This document shows, piece after piece, positions 1-40,926 of a stretch of DNA of 64,000 nucleotides; position 1 is the stretch's first letter; each line of letters begins with the position of its first letter. This DNA comes from Candidatus Dormiibacterota bacterium (GTDB lineage Bacteria; Chloroflexota; Dormibacteria; CF-121). The notes beneath the pieces are model-generated. The model was not told the origin of the DNA. It worked only from the letters and a program-made list of their open reading frames with translations, and did not search any database. The stretch lies in the NCBI GenBank assembly GCA_035716185.1, contig DASTJZ010000172.1:16031-80030 (forward strand), given 5' to 3'. A program made the translations under genes and the position numbers.

Positions 1-900
1 CCGCCGCACCCGGAACGGGCCACCGTCGGCGGCATGGTGGCCGCCAATACCAGCGGGCTCAGCCGCGCCCGCTACGGCACGGTACGCGACTGGGTGATCG
101 GCATCGCGGTAGCCTACCCCTCGGGGAAGGTGGCCCGAGCCGGCGGCAAAGTGGTGAAGAACGTCGCCGGCTACGACCTCATGAAGCTGCATATCGGCGC
201 GTTGGGCACGCTGGGCGTCGTGGCCGAGGTCAATCTCAAGGTGCAGGCCAGGCCCGAGGCGGCGGCCACCCTGCTCGGGCACTTCGAGGCGCCAGCGCCG
301 GCCGTCGAGGCCGGCCTCCGCCTGGCCCGCCAGTATCTCGCCCCGGCCTCCGCCGTCGTGGTCGATCGCAACGCGCTGTGGGCTTGCGGTCTGACCGCGG
401 ATTGGCGCTGGACGCTCGCGCTCAAGCTCGAGGGCTACCGGCGCGAGGTGGACGCCGCCAAGGAGGTTGCCGCCAGGGCGATCCGCGAGGCAGGGGGCCG
501 GACCGAAGGACAGGACATCCCGGTGGGCTTCTGGGAAGCGGCTCGCGATTGGTCGGGAGCAGGTGACGATCAGGTCCTGCTGCGCGCGATCGTTCCGCTG
601 AACGGCGAGGCCACCATCATGGCCGCGCTTCCAGCCGATGGGCAGCTGATGGCCCAGCCGGGCGCCGGCATCATCGAGGCCCGCCTGCCGGCTGGCAGCG
701 CTGCCGCGGTCCTGACCCGCCTGCGCGCGGCGGCCGGCCCGGACGGCCAGGTGATCGTCGCCGCTGCACCGGCTTTGGTCAAGCAAGGACTGGATGTCTG
801 GGGACCGCCTCCGCCTGGCTTTGCCATCATGCGAGCCCTCAAGCAGGCGCTCGATCCAAATGGCATCTTGAACCCGGAGCGATTTGTGGGAGGCATCTGA
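1..900 (+). CDS. glcE: Glycolate oxidase FAD-binding subunit GlcE-like (FAD-linked oxidase, C-terminal part; 5' end outside window)
   Basis: The open frame continues from nt 1. The C-terminus ends ...KQALDPNGILNPERF, typical of GlcD/GlcE FAD-linked oxidases. It lies directly upstream of glcF. Confidence 0.7.
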   Translation, partial: PPHPERATVGGMVAANTSGLSRARYGTVRDWVIGIAVAYPSGKVARAGGKVVKNVAGYDLMKLHIGALGTLGVVAEVNLKVQARPEAAATLLGHFEAPAPAVEAGLRLARQYLAPASAVVVDRNALWACGLTADWRWTLALKLEGYRREVDAAKEVAARAIREAGGRTEGQDIPVGFWEAARDWSGAGDDQVLLRAIVPLNGEATIMAALPADGQLMAQPGAGIIEARLPAGSAAAVLTRLRAAAGPDGQVIVAAAPALVKQGLDVWGPPPPGFAIMRALKQALDPNGILNPERFVGGI

Positions 901-906
901 GACCTG

Positions 907-2265
907 ATGCCGGAGGTGGCCAGGCTCGACTTCAAGCGGCAACTCGAACGCGATGGGGTTCCGGCGCCGGCCGCCGGCATGGACATGGATCTGGTGCGCG
1001 ACTGCATCCATTGCGGGCTCTGCCTTCCCAAATGCCCGACCTTCCGCGCGCTGCACCACGAAGGGGACAGTCCACGCGGGCGGATGTGGCAGATCAAGGA
1101 GGCGACCCTGGGTCTGGTCGCATTCGACGATCCACGCTTCCAGGCGCACATCTATCAATGCTTCAATTGCCGCGCCTGCGAAACGGCCTGTCCCTCCGGC
1201 GTGCAGTTCGGCGCGGTCATGGAACTGGCGCGGGCGCAAACCCCGCCCCAGAATCGGCGCGATCGAATGGTGCGCGGGCTGCTGCTCAATGGCTTGCTGC
1301 CGCATCCTGGACGGCTGCGGATCGCCGGTTGGCTGTATCGGCTTTCGCGGGCGCTGCGCCTCCCCGGCCTGTTGCGCCGCTTCGGGGCGTGGAGGATCAT
1401 GCCGCTGGGCAAGTTTGCCGCCTTCCCGCCCGCCGGGGACGTGCGACCCGGCCAGGTTCCTCTTCCGGCCTTGATGCCGGCGCAGGGCGCACGCCGCGGC
1501 CGGGTGGGCCTGTTGAGCGGTTGCATCCAGGACGAAATGTTCCATGGGACCAACCGCCGGACTGCCCTGGCACTGGTGATGAACGGTTTCGAGGTGATCC
1601 TCCCCCACGAGAGGGTCTGCTGTGGCGCGCTGGCCTCGCATGCGGGCGAGGCGAAAACCGCCGAGCGGCTGGCAGCCCGAACCATGGAGGCCTTCAGCGG
1701 GCTCCAGGCGGACGCCGTGATCGTCAATGCCGCGGGTTGCGGCTCGAACATGAAGGAGTACGAGCTGCAGCTGCGCAACGATCCCCGGCGCCGCCAGGCC
1801 GGCAAGGAATTTTCCGCCACGGTCCGGGACGCATCGCAGTTCCTGGTTGACCACGGACTTCAACCCCCCGCGCACCGGATCGCGCTGCGCGTCGCCTACC
1901 AGGACCCCTGTCACCTGGTGCATGGTCAGAAGATCCACCAGCAGCCTCGCCAGGCGCTCAAAATGATCCCCGGCATCGAACTGGTGGAGATGCAAGAGAG
2001 CGACTGGTGTTGTGGGTCGGCCGGTGTCTACAACCTCACCCATCCAGAGATCGCCGAGCAGGCGCTGAGCTGGAAGGTCCGGCACATCCTGGAATCGGGG
2101 GCCCAGGTCGTCGCCTCGGCAAACCCGGGTTGCATCCTGCAAATCGGCATGGGGCTGCAGCGGGCCGGACACGACATTCCGGTCGTGCACGTGATGGACC
2201 TGCTGGGCTGGGCCTACGGCGACGCGGGCGAGAAGCCGGCCGTGGTTCGCCGCGCCATGATGTGA
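907..2265 (+). CDS. glcF: Glycolate oxidase iron-sulfur subunit GlcF (4Fe-4S dicluster plus two CCG domains)
   Basis: Ferredoxin-type Cys motifs are present (CIHCGLCLPKCPTF, CFNCRACETACPSG). The C-terminal half carries cysteine-rich CCG repeats. Length is 452 aa. Confidence 0.85.
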   Translation: MPEVARLDFKRQLERDGVPAPAAGMDMDLVRDCIHCGLCLPKCPTFRALHHEGDSPRGRMWQIKEATLGLVAFDDPRFQAHIYQCFNCRACETACPSGVQFGAVMELARAQTPPQNRRDRMVRGLLLNGLLPHPGRLRIAGWLYRLSRALRLPGLLRRFGAWRIMPLGKFAAFPPAGDVRPGQVPLPALMPAQGARRGRVGLLSGCIQDEMFHGTNRRTALALVMNGFEVILPHERVCCGALASHAGEAKTAERLAARTMEAFSGLQADAVIVNAAGCGSNMKEYELQLRNDPRRRQAGKEFSATVRDASQFLVDHGLQPPAHRIALRVAYQDPCHLVHGQKIHQQPRQALKMIPGIELVEMQESDWCCGSAGVYNLTHPEIAEQALSWKVRHILESGAQVVASANPGCILQIGMGLQRAGHDIPVVHVMDLLGWAYGDAGEKPAVVRRAMM

Positions 2266-3334: not shown

Positions 3335-3366
3335 TTGTCGGGATCTCGAATGGCAGGCCCTATAAT
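3335..3366 (+). promoter_or_regulatory. Candidate promoter for the IscA-like gene, with a perfect TATAAT -10 at 3361-3366
   Basis: TATAAT ends 8 nt before the ATG at 3375, so the mRNA would be leaderless or nearly so. A possible -35, TTGTCG at 3335-3340, sits at a suboptimal 20-nt spacing. Confidence 0.3.
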
Positions 3367-3374
3367 TGGGCCAC

Positions 3375-3767
3375 ATGGCTCAAGAAATGATCGAACAAGA
3401 CACCCAGCTGATCAGCATCACGGATTCGGCCCTTGGCCAGTTGCGCGACCTGCTCCAGAAGCAGGGCCGCCCGGAGATGGGCCTGCGCGTCTTCGTCCAG
3501 CCGGGTGGCTGCTCGGGGATGTCCTACGGGATGGGCTTCGAGGACCAGGCGGAAGAGGGCGATGCCATCAGTGAAGTTGGCGGCGTCCGTCTCTTTGTTG
3601 ACTCGGTCAGCGCGCGGTACATCAAGGGCGCCGAGATCGACTTCGTCGACAGCTTGATGGGCGGCGGCTTTACGGTCCACAACCCTAACGCCGTCTCGAG
3701 CTGCGCTTGCGGCAGCTCGTTCGACACCGGCGGTGACGCCGGCACCGCACGCGGCTGCAGCCACTGA
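3375..3767 (+). CDS. A-type iron-sulfur cluster carrier (IscA/ErpA/HesB family)
   Basis: The protein is ~120 aa and its C-terminal half matches the HesB/IscA family. It contains the ...VQPGGCSGMSYGMGFEDQ... region and a C-terminal CxCGSSF motif (SSCACGSSF). Confidence 0.8.
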   Translation: MAQEMIEQDTQLISITDSALGQLRDLLQKQGRPEMGLRVFVQPGGCSGMSYGMGFEDQAEEGDAISEVGGVRLFVDSVSARYIKGAEIDFVDSLMGGGFTVHNPNAVSSCACGSSFDTGGDAGTARGCSH

Positions 3768-6336: not shown

Positions 6337-8316
6337 TCAGTGGAGACCGGATCCGGCGATGAGCCCGACCAGAAGCAGCGCCCCGAAGGCACTGTGCAAC
6401 CGAGCCGTCATCAGGTCAATCATGGCGATGGCCCGCAGATGGCCCTGGGCTCCCAGCTCGGCCGACCGCAGAATCCAGGCCATCAACGGCAGGCTCAGCA
6501 GGGTCAACAGCGCCAGCTTCGGCAACGCTCCGACCATGACGGCGAGCCCGACGGCCACGTAGGCGCCCAGCACCAGCATGACGTAGATCCAGTGCGCGGC
6601 GTCACGCCCTAACTGGGCTGAGAGGGTGGTGAAGCCATGGCGCGAATCCTCGGCGACGTCGCGCCACTCGTTGCCGTGCAGGATGGCCGCCACCAGGAGG
6701 CCGACTGGCACGGAGACCACGATCAGGCTGGGATCAAAGGTTCCGGTGACCGCGTAGTAGGAGCCGATCACCATCAACGGGCCCATCAAGACGAAGACCA
6801 GGGGCAGTCCCAGCGCGCGATATTTGTACTGGAAGGGCGGCGCCGTGTAGAAGTAGCCGCCGACGAAGCCGATCAATCCGAGCAGGATGATCGGCAAACC
6901 GCGATTGATCGTCAGGAAGACGCCCATCAGCAGCGCGATCGCAAAGCCGGTCCAGGCTACCGCGAACGCACCGCGTTCCGTGATGCGCCCTTTGAGAATG
7001 GCCATCGACATCCGGGGTGACGTGATCGAGTCGATGCCGTGGCGCACGTCGTAGATCTCATTGACCACATTGGTGCCGATGTGCAGGCCGAGAGCGCCGA
7101 TCAGCGCCGCGAGAAAGAGCAGCCAGTGCATGCGGCCCTGGCCGAGGGCAACGGCGCCGCCGACCGAAACGGGTAACACCGATGCGGTGAAGGCGAAGGG
7201 ACGCATCACCTCCCAGGCTCCACCGGCGCGCCGCAGAATCGGCGTTCCGGCGCTGACTCCTCCCCGCGCCGCAGCGGTTTGGTCGACCGGGGGTGCTACC
7301 GCGGCTGCCGCACCGTGCGTGCCATAGGTGACCGCAGCATCGAGCACCGCCTTGACCTGGGCTTCTTCTTGCAGGATCGGCTGCAACAGCGGTACGTCCA
7401 TACCCGCCTCATCGTGGTAGGCGGCGGTGCGGGCCGCGATTTCATCGACGGTGCCGCAGAGGATGAAGGCGTCCAATAACTCGTCGGGAATCAGCCCGCC
7501 CGCCTTGTGGTAGTCCTCGGCCCGCCAGGCGGCAGCGATCTGGCTCCGCAACTGCGGGTCGAAGCCAGCGCGCTTCAGCGAGATGTCACTGAGCACCGAG
7601 ATCATGTAGATGACAAACGGCTCACGTTTCGCCCGGTTGAGCGCCTCCTGGCGGCTGCTGTCGATCAGACACAACAGGTAGCCGCGGAAGTCGATGTCGG
7701 CGGCAGTCCGACCGTGGGACGCGGCGGTCTCGAGCACGCGAGCCCGCATCTTTTTATATGCCGGCAACGATTCGGCCGGGCGCCCCAGGTAACCGTCGGC
7801 TTTTTCTCCGCAGAGGTCGAGAAATGGCGTGCGGTAGGCCGCGATGTAGATGGGAATGCGGTGCGGCGGCTGAAACATTGGTTGTAGCGGGGGAACCTTG
7901 TCGTTCAGCTTCAGCGGTTCGCCGCGCCAGAGCTGGCGGATCTGATCGATGGCGACGGAGACGCGGGCGACGGTGTCGTCATATGGGATCGCCATCTGGG
8001 ACAGCCGCAACGGCAACCCGCTGCCCAGCGCTAAGGTGCAGCGGCGTGGCGCCAGGTCGTCGAGCGCGGACAGGGTCATGGCGACCACAACGGGATGCCG
8101 GGTGTACGGGTTGAGCGCCCCGGCGCCGAGCCCGATGCGACGCGTCACCTGACCGATCGCCGTCAGGTAGGTGATCGGATCGCGTTCGAAGTAGCTGTCG
8201 TGGACCCAGACCGAGTCCAGGCCCAGATCTTCGGCTTGTCTCGCCCAGGACGCCGCCTCCTTGATGTCGCCGCGCGCGGCGAGCCCGAGGCCAACCCGGC
8301 GTCCGAACTCTGCCAC
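6337..8316 (-). CDS. Fusion protein: N-terminal LLM-class flavin (possibly F420)-dependent oxidoreductase plus C-terminal MenA/UbiA-family prenyltransferase
   Basis: The first ~340 aa carry LLM motifs (GLDSVWVHDSYF, RIGLGAGALNPYTRHP, LSALDDL...LALGSGL). An Ala-rich linker follows. The second domain has UbiA/MenA motifs (NEIYDVRHGID, HGNEWRDVAEDSRHGFTTL) and 8-9 TM helices. It is a single uninterrupted ORF of 659 aa. Confidence 0.75.
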   Translation of the reverse strand: MAEFGRRVGLGLAARGDIKEAASWARQAEDLGLDSVWVHDSYFERDPITYLTAIGQVTRRIGLGAGALNPYTRHPVVVAMTLSALDDLAPRRCTLALGSGLPLRLSQMAIPYDDTVARVSVAIDQIRQLWRGEPLKLNDKVPPLQPMFQPPHRIPIYIAAYRTPFLDLCGEKADGYLGRPAESLPAYKKMRARVLETAASHGRTAADIDFRGYLLCLIDSSRQEALNRAKREPFVIYMISVLSDISLKRAGFDPQLRSQIAAAWRAEDYHKAGGLIPDELLDAFILCGTVDEIAARTAAYHDEAGMDVPLLQPILQEEAQVKAVLDAAVTYGTHGAAAAVAPPVDQTAAARGGVSAGTPILRRAGGAWEVMRPFAFTASVLPVSVGGAVALGQGRMHWLLFLAALIGALGLHIGTNVVNEIYDVRHGIDSITSPRMSMAILKGRITERGAFAVAWTGFAIALLMGVFLTINRGLPIILLGLIGFVGGYFYTAPPFQYKYRALGLPLVFVLMGPLMVIGSYYAVTGTFDPSLIVVSVPVGLLVAAILHGNEWRDVAEDSRHGFTTLSAQLGRDAAHWIYVMLVLGAYVAVGLAVMVGALPKLALLTLLSLPLMAWILRSAELGAQGHLRAIAMIDLMTARLHSAFGALLLVGLIAGSGLH

Positions 8317-8373
8317 GAGAACAGGATAATCGTGAACGTGGGGCAGCCAGCGCGGGCCGACCGGATTCGGCAG

Positions 8374-9030
8374 ATGTTCGATCAGGTGGCGGCCGGATAC
8401 GACGTCCGCAACCGGCTGTTCAGCTTCAATCGCGACAGCGCGTGGCGAAGGCGGGCCGCTCGCCGTGCCGCTTTACGCCAGGGCCAGACGGCGCTGGACC
8501 TCTGTACCGGGACCGGAAAGCTGGCGCACGAGCTCCTGAACTATGTCCATCCGGGTGGCCGGGTTACTGGAGTCGATTTCTCGCCGGCGATGCTGGATCA
8601 GGCCCGCCGCGTCGAACCCGGGGTCGAATTTCGCCTGGGTGACATTACCCATCTTCAGGACGCTGACGCCAGCGTCGACGCGGTCACCATCGGGTTCGGG
8701 CTGCGCAACATCGTGGACCGGGAGGCGGCCTTACGCGAGGTGCAGCGTGTCCTGCGGCCGGGCGGACGGCTCGTCATCCTGGAGTTCGCTCCGCCACCAT
8801 CCGGCCCGCTGATGTGGGGCTATCGTCTTTACCTCACCGTGCTGATGCCGGCGGTCGCCGCCCTGCTCAGTCGGGAGGAAGGCCAGGCGTATCGCTACCT
8901 GGCGGAGAGCGTAGAGCGCTTTCCTCAGCCGGCCGAACTGGCCGCTCAGCTCCAGCGGCTCGGCTTCACGGTCACGGTGGAGAGGCTGACGGCTGGCATC
9001 GTCGCCATCCATACCGCAACCAAGGCCTGA
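8374..9030 (+). CDS. menG: Demethylmenaquinone/ubiquinone C-methyltransferase (UbiE/MenG family)
   Basis: The N-terminus is MFDQVAAGYDVRNRLFSF, followed by a SAM-binding LDLCTGTGK motif. The gene is divergent from the LLM-MenA gene. The track ORF from 8095 over-extends. Confidence 0.85.
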   Translation: MFDQVAAGYDVRNRLFSFNRDSAWRRRAARRAALRQGQTALDLCTGTGKLAHELLNYVHPGGRVTGVDFSPAMLDQARRVEPGVEFRLGDITHLQDADASVDAVTIGFGLRNIVDREAALREVQRVLRPGGRLVILEFAPPPSGPLMWGYRLYLTVLMPAVAALLSREEGQAYRYLAESVERFPQPAELAAQLQRLGFTVTVERLTAGIVAIHTATKA

Positions 9031-25766: not shown

Positions 25767-26390
25767 TCATGCTGGTCGGCTACCAATTCGAAGCACGCCG
25801 ACTTTGGCCATGACGCGCTCAAAGACGTCGTACGGCTGGGCGCCCATGACCAGGTAGCGGTCGGCGATCACGTGCGCTGGGATGCCGTCGATCATCAGAT
25901 CTTCGGCCTCCTGGCGGCGGGCGTCGAGGTAATCGCCGAAGCGATTGGCGGTCAGGGCGGCCTCCATGCCGGCGACGTCGACGCCCGCTTTTGCCGCAAC
26001 CTCGCGAAGGACAGGAAGGTCGGACACGTCGCGACCCTCGTCCCAATAGGCGCGAAAGAGTTCCCGGTGCATCGGGTCGAATCGGCCCTGCTCGCGGGCA
26101 AATTCGGCGGCCTGGAGCGCCGGACGCGAATTGATCAGGCGGGCGTGGCTCGCCAGCTTCAGGCCGGTCTGTTCGGCCATCCGTTTCAGGCCTTCGTTGA
26201 CTCGCGACAGGTAAGCGGCTGGGAGGACCTCCTCGCGCGGCCGCCCCTCCGGTGGGATCTCCGGGTGCAGTTCGAAGGGCACCCACTCGATGGCCACGTC
26301 GTATTCCCGCTCCAGCCGCTCGACTCCGACCGAGTCGATGTAGCAGAAGGGTCAGACGTAATCGGAATAGATCCGAACGGGCGTTGGCAC
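25767..26390 (-). CDS. DsbA/FrnE-like thiol-disulfide oxidoreductase with in-frame TGA (putative selenocysteine) at the CxxC position (U-P-F-C)
   Basis: The six-frame track begins this ORF at 26297, but the frame stays open upstream apart from one TGA at 26354..26352. Read through, the N-terminus is (GTG at 26390) MPTPVRIYSDYV-U-PFCYIDSVGVERLEREYDVAIEWVPFELHPE.... This matches the DsbA-like/FrnE N-terminal beta-strand and CPxC active site, with TGA replacing the first Cys. A candidate SECIS-like hairpin, CUCG-GGUCGGAGU-CGAG, lies ~17 nt downstream of the UGA. Confidence 0.6.
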
Positions 26391-26418
26391 GAGTCGAGGA
26401 TAGCCGGTAGAATTCGCC

Positions 26419-26445
26419 TTAGCACTCTCGCTTGGAGACTGCCAA
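26419..26445 (+). promoter_or_regulatory. CIRCE-like HrcA operator: TTAGCACTC-N9-GACTGCCAA
   Basis: The left half is a perfect CIRCE consensus (TTAGCACTC). The spacer is exactly 9 nt. The right half matches GAGTGCTAA at 7 of 9 positions. The element ends 1 nt before the hrcA ATG at 26447. Confidence 0.4.
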
Positions 26446-26446
26446 C

Positions 26447-27487
26447 ATGGTTGAACCCAGCCCGCTCGACGAGAGAAAGCAGCAGATCCTGAAGGCCGTC
26501 GTGGCCGCCTACACGCTGACCGGCGTGCCGGTTGGTTCCCAGGTCCTGGCTGCCAAGCACTTCATCGCGCTCTCTTCGGCGACGATCCGCAACGAGCTGG
26601 CCGACCTGGTGGGCACCGGCTACCTGCAGCAACCGCACACGTCAGCCGGCCGGATTCCGACCGACCGCGGTTACCGCTATTTCGTCGATTTTTTGATGGA
26701 GCCCGAGTCCGCCTCGGCGACGGTGCGGCGGACCGTCCGGCAGGAATTCGAGAATGCCCCACGGAGCGTCGACGCAATCCTGGAGCGAGCCGCGATGGTC
26801 CTGGCACAGGTCACCGAAAACGTATCGCTGGTCACCGCTCCAGAGGCGAGCGACTTCCGGATCAAGCACGTCGATCTCGTCTCGTTAGAGCCGCAGTCCG
26901 TGCTGATCATCCTGGTGCTGGAGGGCAACCTCATCAAGCAACAGGTGGTGCGGCTCGAGCGTGCCACCTCGCAGGAAGACCTCAGCCGGATGGCGGCAAT
27001 GTTGAATCGCAAAGTGAAAGGACAGACCGCCGATGACCTTGCCACCCGGCTGGAGCAGCTTGGTCCCGATCGAGGCGAGCAGCGGCAGATTCTGCAGCGC
27101 CTGATCGACTCCATCGCGGCGCACCAGACCAATCGACAGACGGTGGTGCTGCACGATGGGGTACGCAACCTGCTCCGGCACCCTGAGTTTGTCGAGGTCA
27201 ACCGCCTGGAGGAGCTCATCGAGTTGCTCGAGCAGGGCGCCCAGCTGGCGGCCGTCCTGCAGCAGGTCGCCTTCGAAAAGGAAGTCGAGATCATCATCGG
27301 CCGCGAGAACACCAGCAGTGGGCTGCGCGAATGCAGTCTGGTGCTGACCACCTACAACATGGCGGCGCGAGTCCGCGGGACGATCGGCGTCATCGGCCCG
27401 ACCCGGATGCCGTACGGGCAAGTCGTCGCCCGCTTGCGCCTGGTCAGCCAGGCGATATCTGACCGGCTGGCCGCCCTGGCGAACTGA
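26447..27487 (+). CDS. hrcA: Heat-inducible transcription repressor HrcA
   Basis: The N-terminal wHTH reads LDERKQQILKAVVAAYTLTGVPVGSQVLA. Length is ~347 aa. The track's TTG start at 26432 is less likely. Confidence 0.85.
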   Translation: MVEPSPLDERKQQILKAVVAAYTLTGVPVGSQVLAAKHFIALSSATIRNELADLVGTGYLQQPHTSAGRIPTDRGYRYFVDFLMEPESASATVRRTVRQEFENAPRSVDAILERAAMVLAQVTENVSLVTAPEASDFRIKHVDLVSLEPQSVLIILVLEGNLIKQQVVRLERATSQEDLSRMAAMLNRKVKGQTADDLATRLEQLGPDRGEQRQILQRLIDSIAAHQTNRQTVVLHDGVRNLLRHPEFVEVNRLEELIELLEQGAQLAAVLQQVAFEKEVEIIIGRENTSSGLRECSLVLTTYNMAARVRGTIGVIGPTRMPYGQVVARLRLVSQAISDRLAALAN

Positions 27488-27503
27488 TTCGCGCCTGAAA
27501 TCG

Positions 27504-28115
27504 ATGGGTAAGAAGAAACACATGTCAGCCAAGCATCAGAACTCCAACCACCCACAGGGCGCCGAGCCTCACGCGCCAGGCGCCGTGGATACAAGGGCCA
27601 GCGCATCGGCAGATCCGGCACCGGACGCCGGCGAGACGACCCAGACCGTCGATTCTGACCTGCAGGCCGCTCGCGAGGAAGCGAAGGCGACCTTTGCTCA
27701 ATACCAGCGACTGGCCGCGGACTTCGAGAACTACAAGCGGCGCTCCCGTCAGGATCTGGCCGATCGAACCCAGTACGCCAACGAAGAGCTGGTTCGCAAG
27801 CTGCTGCCCATCCTCGATAACTTCAAGCGGGCCCTGGACCACGCGCCCGAGAACATCGATCCGAGCTGGTTCGAGGGCATCAAGCTGGTCGCCCGGCAGT
27901 TCGAGGAGACCCTGCAGGCCCAGGGGCTGTCGACCATCCCGGCCGTCGGCCAGCCGTTCGATCCTGCGCAGCACGAGGCCATCGCCCGTGAAGAAACCGA
28001 CGAACACCAAGAGGGCACGGTCGTGGAGGAGATGCGGCCCGGCTACCGGCTACACAATCGGGTCCTGCGGCCTACCCTGGTGAAGGTTGCCCATCCCCGC
28101 GCGTTAAAGTCCTAG
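27504..28115 (+). CDS. grpE: Nucleotide exchange factor GrpE
   Basis: The GrpE core reads FENYKRRSRQDLADRTQYANEELVRKLLPILDNFKRAL. Length is 203 aa. Confidence 0.9.
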   Translation: MGKKKHMSAKHQNSNHPQGAEPHAPGAVDTRASASADPAPDAGETTQTVDSDLQAAREEAKATFAQYQRLAADFENYKRRSRQDLADRTQYANEELVRKLLPILDNFKRALDHAPENIDPSWFEGIKLVARQFEETLQAQGLSTIPAVGQPFDPAQHEAIAREETDEHQEGTVVEEMRPGYRLHNRVLRPTLVKVAHPRALKS

Positions 28116-28124
28116 CGACCTTCT

Positions 28125-29246
28125 ATGGCGATCAAGCGGGATTACTACGAGGTGCTCGGCGTCAGCAAGACGGCCAGCGCCGAGGAACTGAAGCGGGCTT
28201 ACCGCAAGCTGGCGCTGCAGTTCCATCCCGACCGTAATCCCAACGACCCCCAGGCCGAAGCCCGTTTCAAGGAAATCAACGAAGCCTACGAGGTCCTCAG
28301 CGACCAGTCGAAACGGCAGCGCTACGATACCTTCGGGCATGCCGGGACGCAAGGCATGCCGGGCTTCGACTTTGGCGGCGCCGGTTTCGGCGGCATCAAC
28401 GACATCTTCGAGGCATTCTTCGGCAGTGCCGCCGCCGGCCGGACCCGGACCGGTCCGCGCCGTGGCACCGATCTCCGGCTCGACCTCCGACTGACCTTCG
28501 AAGAAGCGGTCTTCGGCGTCGAGCGCGAGCTGACCATTCCGCGGGCTGACGCCTGCGAGGCCTGCCATGGAACGGGTGCGGCAGCCGGCACATCGCCGCA
28601 AACCTGTCCGCAGTGCCGGGGCAGCGGCCAGGTGCGCCGCGCGACGCAGTCGATCTTCGGCCAGATCGTGAACGTGACCAGCTGTCCGCGCTGCAATGGC
28701 GAGGGCAAGGTTATCGAGCGGCCCTGCCGCAACTGCGGCGGCAGCGGGCAGGTGCCCGGAGAGAAGAAGGTCCGCGTCCACATTCCGGGCGGCGTCGATA
28801 GCGGCTCACAGATCCGGCTGTCGGGCGAGGGAGAGGCGGGGCCCCGCGGCGGCTCCCCCGGTGACCTCTACATCGTCATCAATGTCAAGCCCCACGCCGT
28901 TCTCAAGCGAAGTGGCACCGACGTCGTCTATGAGTTACCGCTGAGCGTTGCCCAAGCCGCCCTGGGCGACACGGTCGAGATTCCAACCGTTGACGGCGAG
29001 GAGAAGATCGAGATTCCACCCGGGACGCAGTACGGGAAAACCATCCGGCTGCATGGTCGCGGCATCCCCCATTTGCGCTCGGGCCGTCGGGGCGATCAGA
29101 TCGTCTTCGTTCGGGTTGTCATCCCGACCAATCTGACCGAGGAGCAGCGGCAGGCGATGCGGACGCTGGGCGGCGTCAGCGGCAAACCGCACCCGGTCGA
29201 GAAGGGCTTTTTCGACCGCTTCAAGCACGCCATCGGTCTCGAATAA
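28125..29246 (+). CDS. dnaJ: Chaperone DnaJ
   Basis: The J-domain reads DYYEVLGV...HPDRNP. A G/F-rich region follows. Four CxxCxGxG zinc-finger repeats are present. Length is 373 aa. Confidence 0.9.
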
Positions 29247-34724: not shown

Positions 34725-35215
34725 CAGATGTTCTCGGTGAAGCGGTTTTCGATGTAGAGAGTGGTGCCGTCGATGCGGTGGACATACTGCGGCAGCGGCT
34801 TCGGGGGAGGACCGCCGACGTTCTGGCCCGTGATGTCGTAGAGGCCGCCGTGGCAGGGGCACAGAAATTGGCGGAGGGCGTCATCCCAATGCACTGGACA
34901 TTGCATGTGAGAGCAGACGTTGGAGAGGACCGTGTAGTTGTTGTTCTGCTTGACGACATAGACCGCCGCGTTGACTTTCGAGCTGGTCCATTCGCCTTGC
35001 GGAAACGACACGACGAATTTGGTCGGCTGACCGTCCGGCACGCTGCCGATGTCGCCCACCTGCTGCCAGTAGGTCGGCTGCCGGCGGAACAGGGGCGACA
35101 GGATGAACCCGATGATCGGAATGCCGAGCAGGACGGCGACCACCGCGCCGGCGACCTGCGTGCCGAGGAGGTCGAACTGCCGCCGCGTCAGGCGGCGAGG
35201 ATCACGATGTGCCAT
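34724..35215 (-). CDS. Rieske [2Fe-2S] iron-sulfur protein with Tat signal anchor
   Basis: A twin-arginine signal is present (RRLTRRQF). The Rieske boxes read CSHMQCPVHW and CPCHGGLYD. Confidence 0.85.
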   Translation of the reverse strand: MAHRDPRRLTRRQFDLLGTQVAGAVVAVLLGIPIIGFILSPLFRRQPTYWQQVGDIGSVPDGQPTKFVVSFPQGEWTSSKVNAAVYVVKQNNNYTVLSNVCSHMQCPVHWDDALRQFLCPCHGGLYDITGQNVGGPPPKPLPQYVHRIDGTTLYIENRFTENI

Positions 35216-35438
35216 AGCGGATGAAGCCGTAGAGCACGCCGGCCGTGCCCACGACGATGAACAGAAAGACAACGGTGACGGCGCCGCTGACCAGCCAGAA
35301 GATCAGCGGCGTGTGACCCTGCCCCTGACGGGCCCAGCGACGAAGGCTGCGAACGACGAGACCGACGAACAACAGCGTCAGCGAAACCATGATCGCGCTG
35401 ATCAGGGCGAGATAGAAATAGGTCTGCAGATCACCCAT
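35202..35438 (-). CDS. Small 2-TM membrane protein (possible accessory subunit of the complex)
   Basis: Length is 78 aa, hydrophobic, and it sits between the cyt bd-like and Rieske genes. Confidence 0.45.
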   Translation of the reverse strand: MGDLQTYFYLALISAIMVSLTLLFVGLVVRSLRRWARQGQGHTPLIFWLVSGAVTVVFLFIVVGTAGVLYGFIRYGTS

Positions 35439-35444
35439 CGGTGC

Positions 35445-36689
35445 TCATGGGTAGTAGCCCTTGCTGGGCGCCTGGAAGATGCCATAGCTGTCCGACTCGG
35501 TCATCACGCCGTAAATGGTGTAGTTGCTGCGGGCCGTCTCCCGAATGACCCCCATCAAGAGAAAGAGCAGCAGCGCGCTGGCGCCGGTCACCGCCAGCGT
35601 GACCTGGCTGCTGCGGCGCAGCTCGTTGGTGGGCGCGGGCACCCGCGGCCTGGAAATCAGCCAGTGCGCCAGGCTGATGAACACGGCGACCGCCAGCGCG
35701 ACATAGCGCAGCCAGAACACGTCTTTGGGGAAGACCGCCGCCGGCAGCATGGTGATCAGCGACGTCACGATCACGATGGCGGTCAAGACCGGCCCGGTCG
35801 GCGTTCGACGCGATTGCACGAAGTAGAGATTGGTGCCGATCAGCAGGATGGCGATAAACGTGGCCTGGATCAGCCACAGCCAGGCGAACGGCCCTTGCAG
35901 CGAATATTGAAAAGCCCCGGGCGACGCCCGCTTGATGCTCTCGACAAATATGGCGCCCAGTCCGATCTGGATCGCCAGCGTCGTGAAGCCGACCACCAGG
36001 CTGACTCGAGCGGCCCAGTGGAAGTACACGCGGTTGGCCGCCTGGCGGCTGACCGCGGCATAGACCGCAGCAACTCCGGCAATGAAGAACGATGCCCAGG
36101 AAAGATTGCCGACGAACCGATGAGCGAGCTCCGGCCAGTAGGAGGCGTTGAAGAAGGCGCCGATGCCGCGGCCCGGCGTCAGCATGTAGCTGTCCAGCGC
36201 CACGATGATGAACAGAAAGATGTGCTCCGAGGCCGCCGCCCCGTAGCCGATCGCGATGTGCCTCCCCTTGCGCGCCTGGAAGCGATCCCAGCGCAGCGTG
36301 TAGAGGAGCAGCAAGGCGATGGTCAGGAACCAGATGGTGAAGGCGAGCACCGCCGGCCAGAAGAAGATCGTGACCAGGGTGACGAAGAATTTTCCGTAAA
36401 GCGCCGCGACGACAAACACGGCGAAACCACCCAGCGTCGCGCCCAGGCTGAAGATCTTCTGATTGACATTGCCCAGCGTGCGGGCGTAGCGCTCGAACCG
36501 TGGATCCTCGCGACGAAGCCCGATCCATTCATAGGTCGGACCCAGCACCAGCGAGCCCATCGTGAAGGAGCCGAACATGATGTGGATCAGGAAGAAGATG
36601 CCCACCGCCCATCGATTGGTGATGAACGGGAGCTGGACGCCGGGCTGATTGACCGTGAATGACCCGGCGATAAAGGTCACCGGTGACAT
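35445..36689 (-). CDS. Cytochrome bd-type quinol oxidase subunit I-like membrane protein (CydA family paralog A)
   Basis: The start is MSPVTFIAGSF. The TM1 His is in IHIMFGSF (compare CydA HFLFVPL). LRWDRF matches CydA GWDRL. IRETARSNY matches CydA AEYGRQPW. The track ORF over-extends to 37043. Confidence 0.65.
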   Translation of the reverse strand: MSPVTFIAGSFTVNQPGVQLPFITNRWAVGIFFLIHIMFGSFTMGSLVLGPTYEWIGLRREDPRFERYARTLGNVNQKIFSLGATLGGFAVFVVAALYGKFFVTLVTIFFWPAVLAFTIWFLTIALLLLYTLRWDRFQARKGRHIAIGYGAAASEHIFLFIIVALDSYMLTPGRGIGAFFNASYWPELAHRFVGNLSWASFFIAGVAAVYAAVSRQAANRVYFHWAARVSLVVGFTTLAIQIGLGAIFVESIKRASPGAFQYSLQGPFAWLWLIQATFIAILLIGTNLYFVQSRRTPTGPVLTAIVIVTSLITMLPAAVFPKDVFWLRYVALAVAVFISLAHWLISRPRVPAPTNELRRSSQVTLAVTGASALLLFLLMGVIRETARSNYTIYGVMTESDSYGIFQAPSKGYYP

Positions 36690-38329: not shown

Positions 38330-40867
38330 CTAGGCTCGGAAACCGTAGCGGCCCTCGTGGAAGTCGCCCGTTTCGATCCACTTCTGGATGACGGCGTCCA
38401 TCACCTTGCTGGTGACTCGGTCGTTGCCAAGCTCGCGCGCGTTGCCTTCGATGGCTTCCATCACCTGGCCCTTGACGAAGCTGGGCATATTCGACAGCCG
38501 TCCCTCGGCATCTGGATCCCATGCCATCGTCAAGCCCTTGCGTTGCAGGGCGTCAGAGACTTCTGCCCACATTCCGAACTTGACGTCCATGACGTCGGGC
38601 GTGATCACGGGCCCGAGGCCCTTCTTTGCCGCGGTCCACTCGACTCGCCAGCGGCTCAGCTCGCGGCAGTACGAGGGCAGGGCTTCCAGGCGAGCTTCCG
38701 CCTCGGCCGTCCAGGTAAATCGGTGCTCGAAGGTTTTGGGGCTGAGCGGGTGGCCGTAGCCGATCTTGATGCCCAACCGCTCGAGAAAGGCCGCATTGAT
38801 CGCCTCCGAGGTACGCGCCGCCCGCGACTCGGCGGCATGCTGCGCCAGCTCGCGCGCTCGGGCCGGTTCGAACTTTTCCTCGGCCCGGATTTCGACCTCA
38901 TTGAGCCGCCGGACGCCATCCTCGGTCCATCCCGGTGAGGCCTCGCGCGGCGACGAGCCATCGCCGGCGGGATGCCCGTGCGCCCGCATGGCGGCTTCGA
39001 CGACCTCGGGTGAGTGCGCCTTCAGTGCCTGATCCATCATCAGGCGCGCATCGACCAGGCCGCCTTCGACCACGTCTCGGGTGATCGCCTCGGCGTGAAT
39101 TTTCCGGGCGAACTCCTCCACCTTGGTCCGGGCCAGCATGCGCATGAACCCGGCCGGCACCCGTTCCATCCGCTGGACGGCGTCATCGGTCCAGGTCACC
39201 GGCGTGGACGATTCCCCTCCATCTTTGGAGGAGGGCAGGGTGGGGGCCGTGTCGCTGACGACTTCGGCGACCGGGGCATAGGCCTCATCCAGGTTGGCGT
39301 CGGTGAACTCCCTGGTGATGCTCGGCAGGCGCTGGATACGGGCGATCTTTTCGATACGGGCTTTGACCCGCCGGCGCTCATAGCCCTTCGGCACTCGGCC
39401 GAGCACGTCTTTGGCCTCGACGGTCCACTTGACCTTGAAGCCGTCGAAGGCCTCTTCTTCCTCGATGCCGCCCTCGCGGGTGGCGGCGGCGACCATGGCT
39501 GCCTTATCGACGCGCTGAAAGCTCACGCCGTCGCACACCGGGCACACCGCCGGCTGCGCTCCGCGGATCGGACGACCGCATCGGCGGCAGACCCAGGTGT
39601 CAGGAGCGGGCTGGGATGCCACCGTCGCTTTCACTCGCGCGGGTTCGACGCCCATGGCCCGGGCGGCATGCTCGGGCATCACCTCGGACACCGCCTCGTC
39701 GATGATCGACGAGCTGATGATCGAATGGCCGCGCTCCATGGCATAGCGGCAAATGGCCGTACGGGTGATGGCGCGAAACGCGGCCGGCACCTTTTCCATC
39801 CGGATCTCGGCTTCTTCGGTCCACACCACGCTGGCCTCCGCCTGCAGGTCGATCGGCGGCACAAAGGTGCGACTCGAGAGGAGGACGCTGACCGGCGCCA
39901 GGCGCAGCAGGTTGTCGCTATTGCTGCCGATGTCCATCTCGGCGGCGGAGTGGACACCGATCCGACCCGCGACCAGCAGCCAGGGTGGCTCCTGACGGAC
40001 ATACTGCAGCACTTTCTTGAACGCTTTGCCATCGAGCAGCGTGGTCTTGATCGGGAGGCCTTCGTCGCGCGCGATTGATTCCGCGACGCGCAGGTGCGAT
40101 TCATAGATCTTCGCCAGGCCGGTGTCGATGATCTCTTCGTGCAGCTGTTCCTGTTCCTTGAACCGGAAGACCTTTGACGCCTCGGCCGAGAGGACGTCGA
40201 CGATGCCGTTGAACATCGCGTAATGCAGATAGGGGTCGTAGACCGAGACCGCCTCGACCTTCTTGCCGAAGACGCGGGCCAGGTCGATCGCCGTGCGCAA
40301 ACCGGCGAAGGATTGCGGACTGCCGTCGATCGCGACCACGATCCGATCGGATGCATCGTCGCGGAAGGGATGCGTGTCGCGGATCACCAGCGAGTCGACC
40401 CGGATGCGTCGCAGCACCCGATCCGTCACGCTGCCGACCATGCTGTCCTTGACCGCGCCCATCCCGAGCGCACCCATCACGACCAGGTCGTAATCCGACT
40501 CGGCGATGTCGTCGACCAAGCACTCCCAGTTCTTGCCGTCGAAGGTCTTGTATTCGAAGGGAAGACCGGCCCGCTCGCAGGCCACCTTCATGACGTCCAG
40601 GTACGAGTCGGAGATGAGCTGGAGGCCGCGGGTGATCAGCGAGTCGTGGATCTTGCGCTGCCGCTCGAGTTCCTGCTCCTGCTGGTACTCGTCCGGCAGG
40701 GTAAATTCCATTTGCTTGAACCGGACGTCGTGCATCCGGGCGGCGTAGACATGGCTGCCGACCAGGCGGGCTTCGGTGGCCCCGGCCAGGCGGACGGCCA
40801 CCTCGATGGCGGCATTGGAATGGTCAGAGTTGTCAAGGGGAACGTAGATTTTGCGGTACACGGGCAA
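38330..40867 (-). CDS. Multidomain protein: tandem universal stress protein (USP) domains plus Zn-ribbon plus ~6 repeats of the PCP_red domain (C-terminal domain of protochlorophyllide reductase BchB/ChlB)
   Basis: USP-like regions are at aa 5-165 and 173-335. CRRCGRPIRGAQPAVCPVCDG is at aa 427-445. Repeats of the WT-x-EA-x-x-R-x-x-x-VP type (VVWTEEAEIRMEKVPAAFRAITRTA..., VKWTVEAKDVLGRVPKGYERRRVKARIE..., VTWTDDAVQRMERVPAGFMRMLARTKVEEFA..., RFTWTAEAEARLEALPSY..., AWDPDAEGRLSNMPSFVKGQVMEAIEG...) start at about aa 347, 478, 556, 645, 717 and 782. The gene has a TTG start with a GGAGGG RBS. Confidence 0.7.
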   Translation of the reverse strand: MPVYRKIYVPLDNSDHSNAAIEVAVRLAGATEARLVGSHVYAARMHDVRFKQMEFTLPDEYQQEQELERQRKIHDSLITRGLQLISDSYLDVMKVACERAGLPFEYKTFDGKNWECLVDDIAESDYDLVVMGALGMGAVKDSMVGSVTDRVLRRIRVDSLVIRDTHPFRDDASDRIVVAIDGSPQSFAGLRTAIDLARVFGKKVEAVSVYDPYLHYAMFNGIVDVLSAEASKVFRFKEQEQLHEEIIDTGLAKIYESHLRVAESIARDEGLPIKTTLLDGKAFKKVLQYVRQEPPWLLVAGRIGVHSAAEMDIGSNSDNLLRLAPVSVLLSSRTFVPPIDLQAEASVVWTEEAEIRMEKVPAAFRAITRTAICRYAMERGHSIISSSIIDEAVSEVMPEHAARAMGVEPARVKATVASQPAPDTWVCRRCGRPIRGAQPAVCPVCDGVSFQRVDKAAMVAAATREGGIEEEEAFDGFKVKWTVEAKDVLGRVPKGYERRRVKARIEKIARIQRLPSITREFTDANLDEAYAPVAEVVSDTAPTLPSSKDGGESSTPVTWTDDAVQRMERVPAGFMRMLARTKVEEFARKIHAEAITRDVVEGGLVDARLMMDQALKAHSPEVVEAAMRAHGHPAGDGSSPREASPGWTEDGVRRLNEVEIRAEEKFEPARARELAQHAAESRAARTSEAINAAFLERLGIKIGYGHPLSPKTFEHRFTWTAEAEARLEALPSYCRELSRWRVEWTAAKKGLGPVITPDVMDVKFGMWAEVSDALQRKGLTMAWDPDAEGRLSNMPSFVKGQVMEAIEGNARELGNDRVTSKVMDAVIQKWIETGDFHEGRYGFRA

Positions 40868-40926
40868 GCTTCCCTCCTAACAGCGGCGTAGGCGTCCAGA
40901 CTGATATTGGCAGACCGAGACAATCT

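Follow-up and report, generated by a model that had tools for sequence, protein, structure and literature searches.

A probable selenocysteine-containing DsbA/FrnE-like oxidoreductase encoded divergently from hrcA in Dormibacterota-type bacteria

A DsbA-like protein (COG2761) in which selenocysteine (Sec, U) forms part of a UxxC motif was described in 2005 as a new selenoprotein family of the Sargasso Sea selenoproteome (PMC1088965), and DsbA-like selenoproteins were also recorded in Anaeromyxobacter, Desulfovibrio and Desulfotomaculum (PMC1794560). The family was counted in 41 organisms in 2016 (PMC5029168), and 'DsbA-like protein form 1, PF01323, UxxC' is listed, with Asgard archaea included, in a 2026 review (PMC13188914). 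Here we report the analysis of a 64,000-nt stretch of DNA (hereafter, the window) from a Candidatus Dormiibacterota bacterium (assembly GCA_035716185.1, contig DASTJZ010000172.1, positions 16,031 to 80,030 of the forward strand), which contains a gene for a DsbA/FrnE-like oxidoreductase interrupted by a single in-frame TGA at the first cysteine of its active-site motif. We conclude, with high confidence, that this UGA encodes Sec in a cytoplasmic FrnE-type DsbA-like protein, the N-terminal nucleophilic Cys being replaced to give the predicted motif U-P-F-C.

The window gene shares with the published DsbA-like selenoprotein family a PF01323 domain, a predicted UxxC motif in which Sec takes the place of the N-terminal nucleophile, widespread Cys homologues, and a hairpin inside the open reading frame (ORF) after the UGA. 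It differs from that family in distribution, the subfamily described here occurring in Dormibacterota-, Limnocylindria- and Dehalococcoidia-type genomes, and in its linkage to hrcA and to the CIRCE element (controlling inverted repeat of chaperone expression), which the available parts of the family reports do not describe. Judged by sequence, the gene carries every feature by which the family is recognised, and the kinship is one of family. We regard the predicted protein as a well-supported addition to a selenoprotein family already known, from a lineage for which the use of Sec appears undiscussed; what is known of the Sec mechanism, or of the DsbA-like selenoprotein family itself, is not changed by it.

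The ORF as called starts at GTG 26297 and encodes 176 aa (25767..26297, minus strand). The frame is open from this codon upstream to GTG 26390 except for one TGA, at 26354..26352, and the next in-frame stop upstream of GTG 26390 lies at 26562-26564. Read through, the 207 codons give a product that begins V(fMet)PTPVRIYSDYV-[TGA]-PFCYIDSVGVERLEREYDVAIEW.... With Cys substituted at the TGA, the product matches Pfam DSBA (PF01323; E=4e-36), residues 5-193 corresponding to profile positions 2-189 of 191; because the match begins at residue 5, the 12 residues preceding the TGA are an integral part of the domain. Cys16 is the sole cysteine among the 207 residues, so that no redox pair other than Sec13 with Cys16 would be possible. 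The N-terminus, MPTPVRIYSDYV, leads directly into strand 1, and no signal peptide is present. The start position is occupied by ATG in 43 of 56 distinct upstream regions of relatives and by GTG, as in the window gene, in the other 13. The preliminary description of this locus, which had proposed a DsbA/FrnE-like oxidoreductase whose frame is broken only by a TGA lying exactly at the first Cys of a CxxC motif, proved correct in all of its coordinates, and its family assignment is borne out both by the Pfam match and by the structural match that follows.

The closest solved structure is that of FrnE of Deinococcus radiodurans (PDB 5CNW; phmmer E=1.5e-21, residues 5-190 of the window protein against residues 14-211 of the chain). 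The active sites align (SDIACPWCY in FrnE, SDYV-U-PFCY here), the catalytic CPWC of FrnE meeting the TGA site; a G-[VI]-P loop is common to the two proteins, and neither has a signal peptide. The proline of the G-I-P loop is presumably the cis-proline of the thioredoxin fold, which lies opposite the active site. The two proteins differ in that Sec would replace the first Cys, in length (207 residues here, 260 in FrnE) and in that identity is low. FrnE carries a C-terminal Cys-containing tail, whereas the window protein, having no further cysteine, has neither such a tail nor a second cysteine pair. Being shorter and without a second cysteine pair, the predicted protein is not a full FrnE equivalent. 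It resembles periplasmic DsbA of the E. coli type in its thioredoxin fold with helical insertion and in its CxxC-type active site, but its score with the NCBIfam model NF008198 is only 16 bits, where the cutoff is 279, it lacks a signal peptide, and it has UPFC in place of CPHC; for these reasons it is unlikely to act as an oxidant of secreted proteins. The absence of a signal peptide, together with the likeness to FrnE, points instead to a DsbA-family thiol-disulfide oxidoreductase that works in the cytoplasm.

The DNA of relatives was collected from 80 loci of species-representative genomes and 80 loci of soil or marine metagenomes, and the critical codon was scored in the 155 loci whose motif was identifiable. 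Of these, 90 have TGA, 51 have TGC and 14 have TGT, and none has TAA or TAG. All 90 loci of the subfamily, which derive from many metagenome-assembled genome (MAG) projects and from metagenomes, have TGA; TGC and TGT are confined to the 65 more distant homologues. The TGA loci fall into two groups. Group A comprises 76 loci with 68-84% identity and the motif SDYV-U-PFCY, from soil metagenomes and from MAGs that carry the label Candidatus Dormiibacterota, 'Chloroflexi bacterium' or Limnocylindria. Group B comprises 14 loci with 37-42% identity and the motif SDY[IL]-U-PWCY, from Dehalococcoidia/Chloroflexota MAGs and metagenomes (L014-L016, L018-L020, L049 and L146-L152), in which the N-terminus is longer, a clear Shine-Dalgarno site is present, and there is no hrcA or CIRCE neighbour. 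The motif SDY[VIL]-U-P[FW]-CY thus covers all putative Sec forms, and SDYVCPFCY occurs in Cys forms. A downstream motif, EWVPFELHPE, is common to groups A and B; every locus bearing WVPFELHP has TGA, and WVPFEL occurs in no Cys-form locus. We conclude that the TGA is fixed throughout a Chloroflexota-related subfamily that spans Dormibacterota-, Limnocylindria- and Dehalococcoidia-type genomes. The occurrence of group B in Dehalococcoidia fits the placing of that class among the most selenoprotein-rich bacteria (PMC13326102).

Analysis of normalised synonymous-codon entropy in 66 distinct group-A sequences indicates that the protein is under selection on both sides of the TGA. In codons -12 to -1, amino-acid conservation is 0.68-1.00, with R, Y, S, D, Y and V invariant, and synonymous entropy is 0.52, a value close to those of codons +12 to +30 (0.53) and of the remaining gene (0.61). 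The pattern is that of protein-level purifying selection on either side of the TGA. Moreover, group B, which has no upstream hrcA or CIRCE, nevertheless keeps the N-terminal strand and the TGA, and conservation upstream of the TGA therefore reflects more than promoter DNA.

A conserved hairpin follows the UGA and has the position expected of a selenocysteine insertion sequence (SECIS). The preliminary description had suggested a SECIS-like hairpin with a 4-bp CUCG/CGAG stem: a hairpin does follow the UGA, but the conserved one has 7 bp and a different pairing. The CUCG/CGAG stem was rejected, since only 78% of its cells are paired and 32 of 54 sequences cannot form its outer pair. The 7-bp stem has 97.1% of its cells paired in the 54 distinct group-A sequences, a figure that falls to 22-60% if the 3' partners are shifted by 1-3 columns; it is present in the minimum-free-energy structure of a 71-nt segment around the UGA (z=-2.0), and 6 of its 7 pairs are kept in the RNAalifold consensus of the same 54 sequences. 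Substitutions in the stem are nearly all of a kind that preserves pairing (at one pair UA 36, UG 13 and CG 5; at others AU to GU and CG to UG). The seven hairpin codons have a normalised synonymous entropy of 0.11, about five-fold below that of the rest of the gene (0.52-0.61), and this synonymous constraint is stronger evidence for the hairpin than covariation is. In the bSECISearch model of bacterial SECIS elements, the apical loop lies 16-37 nt from the UGA and has a G among its first two positions; the loop here, 20 nt from the UGA and beginning GG, agrees with that model. Compared with the SECIS of the E. coli fdhF type, the hairpin is alike in lying inside the ORF directly 3' of the UGA, with its loop at 20 nt, and its GGUC loop presumably resembles the fdhF loop; it is unlike in that the stem is shorter (6-7 bp), in that no bulged U was identified, and in that the sequence outside the loop is unrelated.

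The coding of the active site by a stop codon has consequences for public annotation. A search of 5.8 billion protein sequences returned 594 relatives, of which the best 120 are all N-terminally truncated, with 166-193 aa covering 79-92% of the query at up to 95% identity, in keeping with the earlier suggestion that the gene is mis-called as a truncated ORF. All 14 relatives whose sequences were inspected begin after the motif (e.g. MDSVGVERL... or VPFELHPE...), and several entries among the best 120 begin at a non-canonical start (e.g. ATC/ATA) immediately after it. The truncated entries include the NCBI 'DsbA family protein' of Candidatus Dormibacteraeota MAGs and the JGI 'predicted DsbA family dithiol-disulfide isomerase'. 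Truncation after the motif is what gene callers yield at a conserved in-frame stop. NCBIfam holds no model that captures the selenoprotein subfamily, the best being a partial 42-bit match to NF041057 (cutoff 190), which explains why the mis-annotation is systematic. Functional and metabolic inference for these abundant soil bacteria consequently misses a redox enzyme and a selenium-utilisation trait.

Three other accounts of the TGA have to be weighed against Sec. That a TGC was misread in sequencing or assembly, or that the gene is a recent pseudogene, is much the alternative named in the preliminary description: one base change, TGC to TGA, suffices, and gene callers do treat the ORF as truncated. 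The account is ruled out by conservation of the same TGA in 90 of 90 subfamily loci of independent assemblies, and we consider its probability negligible: the 90 loci are divergent, with protein identities of 37-95%, come from independent genomes and metagenomes, and never show TAA or TAG; both flanks are under purifying selection; a pseudogene would not retain a frame of 200 codons and a hairpin with constrained synonymous sites; and the divergence among related loci excludes a single contaminating sequence. A different possibility is that the protein starts downstream of the TGA (e.g. at GTG 26297 or at ATC/ATA) and has no CxxC, the conservation upstream being that of the hrcA promoter and CIRCE DNA. 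The hrcA -35 element (26384-26389) does overlap codons 1-3, the intergenic DNA is strongly conserved, and a downstream start is the one used by all public annotations (best 120 of 594 relatives). Yet codons -11 to -1 vary synonymously in frame while R, Y, S, D, Y and V show no variation at all, and the Dehalococcoidia-type relatives keep VVSDYI-TGA-PWCY without upstream hrcA or CIRCE; close orthologues do not lack the thioredoxin-fold N-terminus, as the DNA of relatives keeps the upstream codons in frame despite the downstream-start annotations. In addition, the Pfam and FrnE alignments require these residues as strand 1 and active site, and a downstream start would leave a thioredoxin fold without a redox centre and with one Cys remaining. 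We therefore consider a downstream start very unlikely.

The remaining account accepts that the UGA is read but holds that it is decoded as an amino acid other than Sec, by near-cognate read-through (Trp or Cys) or by a suppressor tRNA with a UCA anticodon, the hairpin serving only to stimulate read-through; candidates for such a suppressor include the unusual 'allo-tRNAs' described in soil metagenomes. Several observations lend weight to this account, or otherwise weigh against Sec. The Sec machinery was found neither in the window nor in the 160 fetched loci: ARAGORN found no tRNA in the 64-kb window, Rfam models at gathering thresholds gave no hit there, about 50 scanned window ORFs gave no Pfam match to the SelA, SelB or SelD families, and neither SelA, SelB or SelD (tblastn with approximate E. 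coli queries) nor tRNA-Sec (ARAGORN) was found in the 160 loci, which are short, largely syntenic and a small part of each genome, so that these negatives say little. (The tblastn matches that did arise were to the LepA GTPase, with one weak PurM/SelD-superfamily match in an unrelated Cys-form locus, and were set aside; so was a 95-nt ARAGORN 'tRNA-Arg(CCT)' at 12371-12465 of L010, for which Rfam gave no tRNA match at E<=1 and which is probably a false positive and no tRNA-Sec.) The literature searched yielded no link between Dormibacterota and Sec or selenoproteins. Covariation in the hairpin is thin: a double change occurs at one stem pair only, in 5 closely related sequences of one sub-lineage, where it is probably a single event and coincides with amino-acid replacements (Ser/Gly to Leu/Arg codons). 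A shuffle control for the pairing is only marginal (4/500), and no Rfam family matched the hairpin, either at gathering thresholds or in a permissive search, in which mir-4079 and similar matches were dismissed as chance hits. Finally, group B does not have the group-A hairpin. Its members carry different hairpins, GC-rich and only weakly consistent with one another, some 23-26 nt past the UGA; a single protein subfamily thus seems to have seen its SECIS remodelled. Against decoding as another amino acid stand the site itself, which is the classic Sec/Cys-exchangeable nucleophile of a catalogued UxxC selenoprotein family, the distance and G-rich loop of the hairpin, which fit the bacterial SECIS model, and the membership of the Dehalococcoidia-type relatives in a Sec-rich class; moreover, had Cys been inserted, TGC or TGT should have become fixed in some of the 90 lineages, and in none has it. 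Nor is UGA reassigned throughout the genome: TGA ends 24 of 47 Pfam-supported genes of the window and is thus an ordinary stop there, so that the recoding would be site-specific, and a scan for other coding-like in-frame TGAs in the window gave three candidates, none with redox context. On balance we regard non-Sec decoding as unlikely. A stronger version, in which the lineage does without canonical SelA, SelB, SelD and tRNA-Sec, and the UGA and hairpin are decoded by a UCA-anticodon suppressor or allo-tRNA (Cys or Ser) or by a new recoding factor, we hold to be distinctly unlikely; if true, it would amount to site-specific sense-recoding of UGA in aerobic soil bacteria. A milder alternative to it is that the gene may encode a selenoprotein that belongs to the HrcA/CIRCE heat-shock regulon and is made from a leaderless mRNA.

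The reading that the UGA very probably encodes Sec, which the preliminary description had advanced for U-P-F-C, thus draws support from the TGA in 90 of 90 loci, from Cys at this site in distant homologues and in FrnE, from selection on the flanks and from the hairpin. The established behaviour of UxxC selenoproteins with a thioredoxin fold suggests how such a protein would be made and would act. SelB with Sec-tRNA(Sec) would bind the hairpin and insert Sec at the UGA, for which it would compete with RF2. The Sec13 selenolate would attack substrate disulfides, and the selenenylsulfide formed with Cys16 would then be resolved by a cellular reductant; the Sec13/Cys16 pair would cycle between selenol/thiol and selenenylsulfide in thiol-disulfide exchange, that is, in reduction or isomerisation of client disulfides, and would surpass a Cys/Cys pair in speed and in the breadth of its redox range. 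Among Dormibacterota-type genomes, where the gene and hrcA lie back-to-back on either side of CIRCE, HrcA may repress both genes, and heat or proteotoxic stress may induce the selenoprotein gene. The gene would imply that Dormibacterota-type soil bacteria use Sec, and the predicted selenoprotein adjoins, and possibly falls under, the HrcA/CIRCE stress switch.

The genomic context bears on this last point. The gene is divergent from hrcA-grpE-dnaJ (hrcA by Pfam PF01628, E=3e-57), and its downstream neighbours, on the opposite strand, are a radical-SAM gene and lepA. Its start codon (26390) and the hrcA ATG (26447) are 56 nt apart, and the CIRCE element lies in this gap, as the early account of a divergent gene sharing the CIRCE region had it. 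On the minus strand the element reads TTGGCAGTC-N9-GAGTGCTAA (26445..26419), the consensus used being TTAGCACTC-N9-GAGTGCTAA. The CIRCE pattern occurs at offset -55 in 52 of 70 distinct upstream regions, all 52 of the Dormibacterota type (group A); in four Limnocylindria-type relatives a variant of it is shifted in position, and it is absent from group B. The element abuts the hrcA ATG, the GGAGA inside it is likely the hrcA ribosome-binding site, and CIRCE clearly serves hrcA. A consensus scan placed the hrcA promoter with its -35, TTGGCA, at 26384-26389, within the first three codons of the selenoprotein gene, and its -10 at 26408-26413. For the selenoprotein gene itself, the upstream DNA contains a TAnnCT hexamer whose four specified bases each reach at least 90% conservation across 56 distinct upstream regions; it was not among the elements called by the consensus promoter scan. 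No Shine-Dalgarno-like motif was found at -16 to -4 in the same 56 regions. The hexamer, 6 nt before the start, and the lack of a Shine-Dalgarno-like motif suggest a leaderless selenoprotein mRNA whose -35 region would fall inside CIRCE, and co-repression of the gene by HrcA is plausible. The promoters of the two genes thus seem to stand back to back. The coordinates of these features are collected in Table 1.

Table 1. Features of the predicted selenoprotein gene and its upstream region, in window coordinates
Feature	Position	Strand	Remarks
Full-length DsbA/FrnE-like selenoprotein gene (predicted)	25767..26390	minus	207 codons including the Sec codon; GTG start 26390..26388; TGA terminator 25769..25767
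In-frame UGA, proposed selenocysteine codon, residue 13	26352..26354	minus	Aligns with first Cys of FrnE CPWC
Redox motif U-P-F-C (predicted)	26343..26354	minus	Cys16 = 26345..26343
N-terminal 12 codons (beta-strand 1 region, ...RIYSDYV)	26355..26390	minus	Dropped by gene callers; inside Pfam DSBA profile
Pro171, G-I-P-A-H loop, presumed cis-proline	25878..25880	minus	Aligns with FrnE G-V-P (phmmer)
SECIS-like hairpin UCGACUC-GGUCG-GAGUCGA, 7 bp	26320..26338	minus	Stem 13 nt after UGA; apical loop GGUCG 26331..26327, 20 nt from UGA
CIRCE inverted repeat, two mismatches	26419..26445		28 nt upstream of selenoprotein start; TTAGCACTC-N9-GACTGCCAA on the plus strand
TAnnCT hexamer (TATCCT)	26397..26402	minus	Ends 6 nt before start; possible -10 of leaderless transcript

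Within the heat-shock operon (26447-29246, plus strand), grpE occupies 27504-28115 and dnaJ 28125-29246, with no dnaK between them; the usual order in such operons is hrcA-grpE-dnaK-dnaJ.

The rest of the window provided further observations. A long membrane-protein ORF at 35202-36680 (minus strand) ends at TGA 35447..35445 (...GIFQAPSKGYYP before the stop), and the same frame continues after this TGA as a hydrophobic ORF of 78 aa (MGDLQTYFYLALISAIMV...), just upstream of Rieske/cytochrome b genes. The TGA was rejected as a second selenoprotein site: there is no redox motif, and the arrangement probably represents two adjacent membrane-protein genes that share a frame. At 1-2265 (plus strand) one frame holds a fragment of a GlcD-like FAD oxidase and, after it, a GlpC-like Fe-S/CCG oxidoreductase, and a HesB/IscA-like gene lies nearby (3366-3767, plus strand). 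Other bacteria have Sec-containing versions of both GlpC-like and HesB-like proteins; the window genes are ordinary Cys forms and were not retained as selenoproteins. An ORF at 38330-40876 (minus strand) has an unusual architecture, with two Usp domains and three 'PCP_red' (protochlorophyllide reductase 57 kD subunit) domains. At 6337-8472 (minus strand), luciferase-like monooxygenase and UbiA prenyltransferase domains occur in one stop-to-stop frame, as a fusion or as two in-frame genes.

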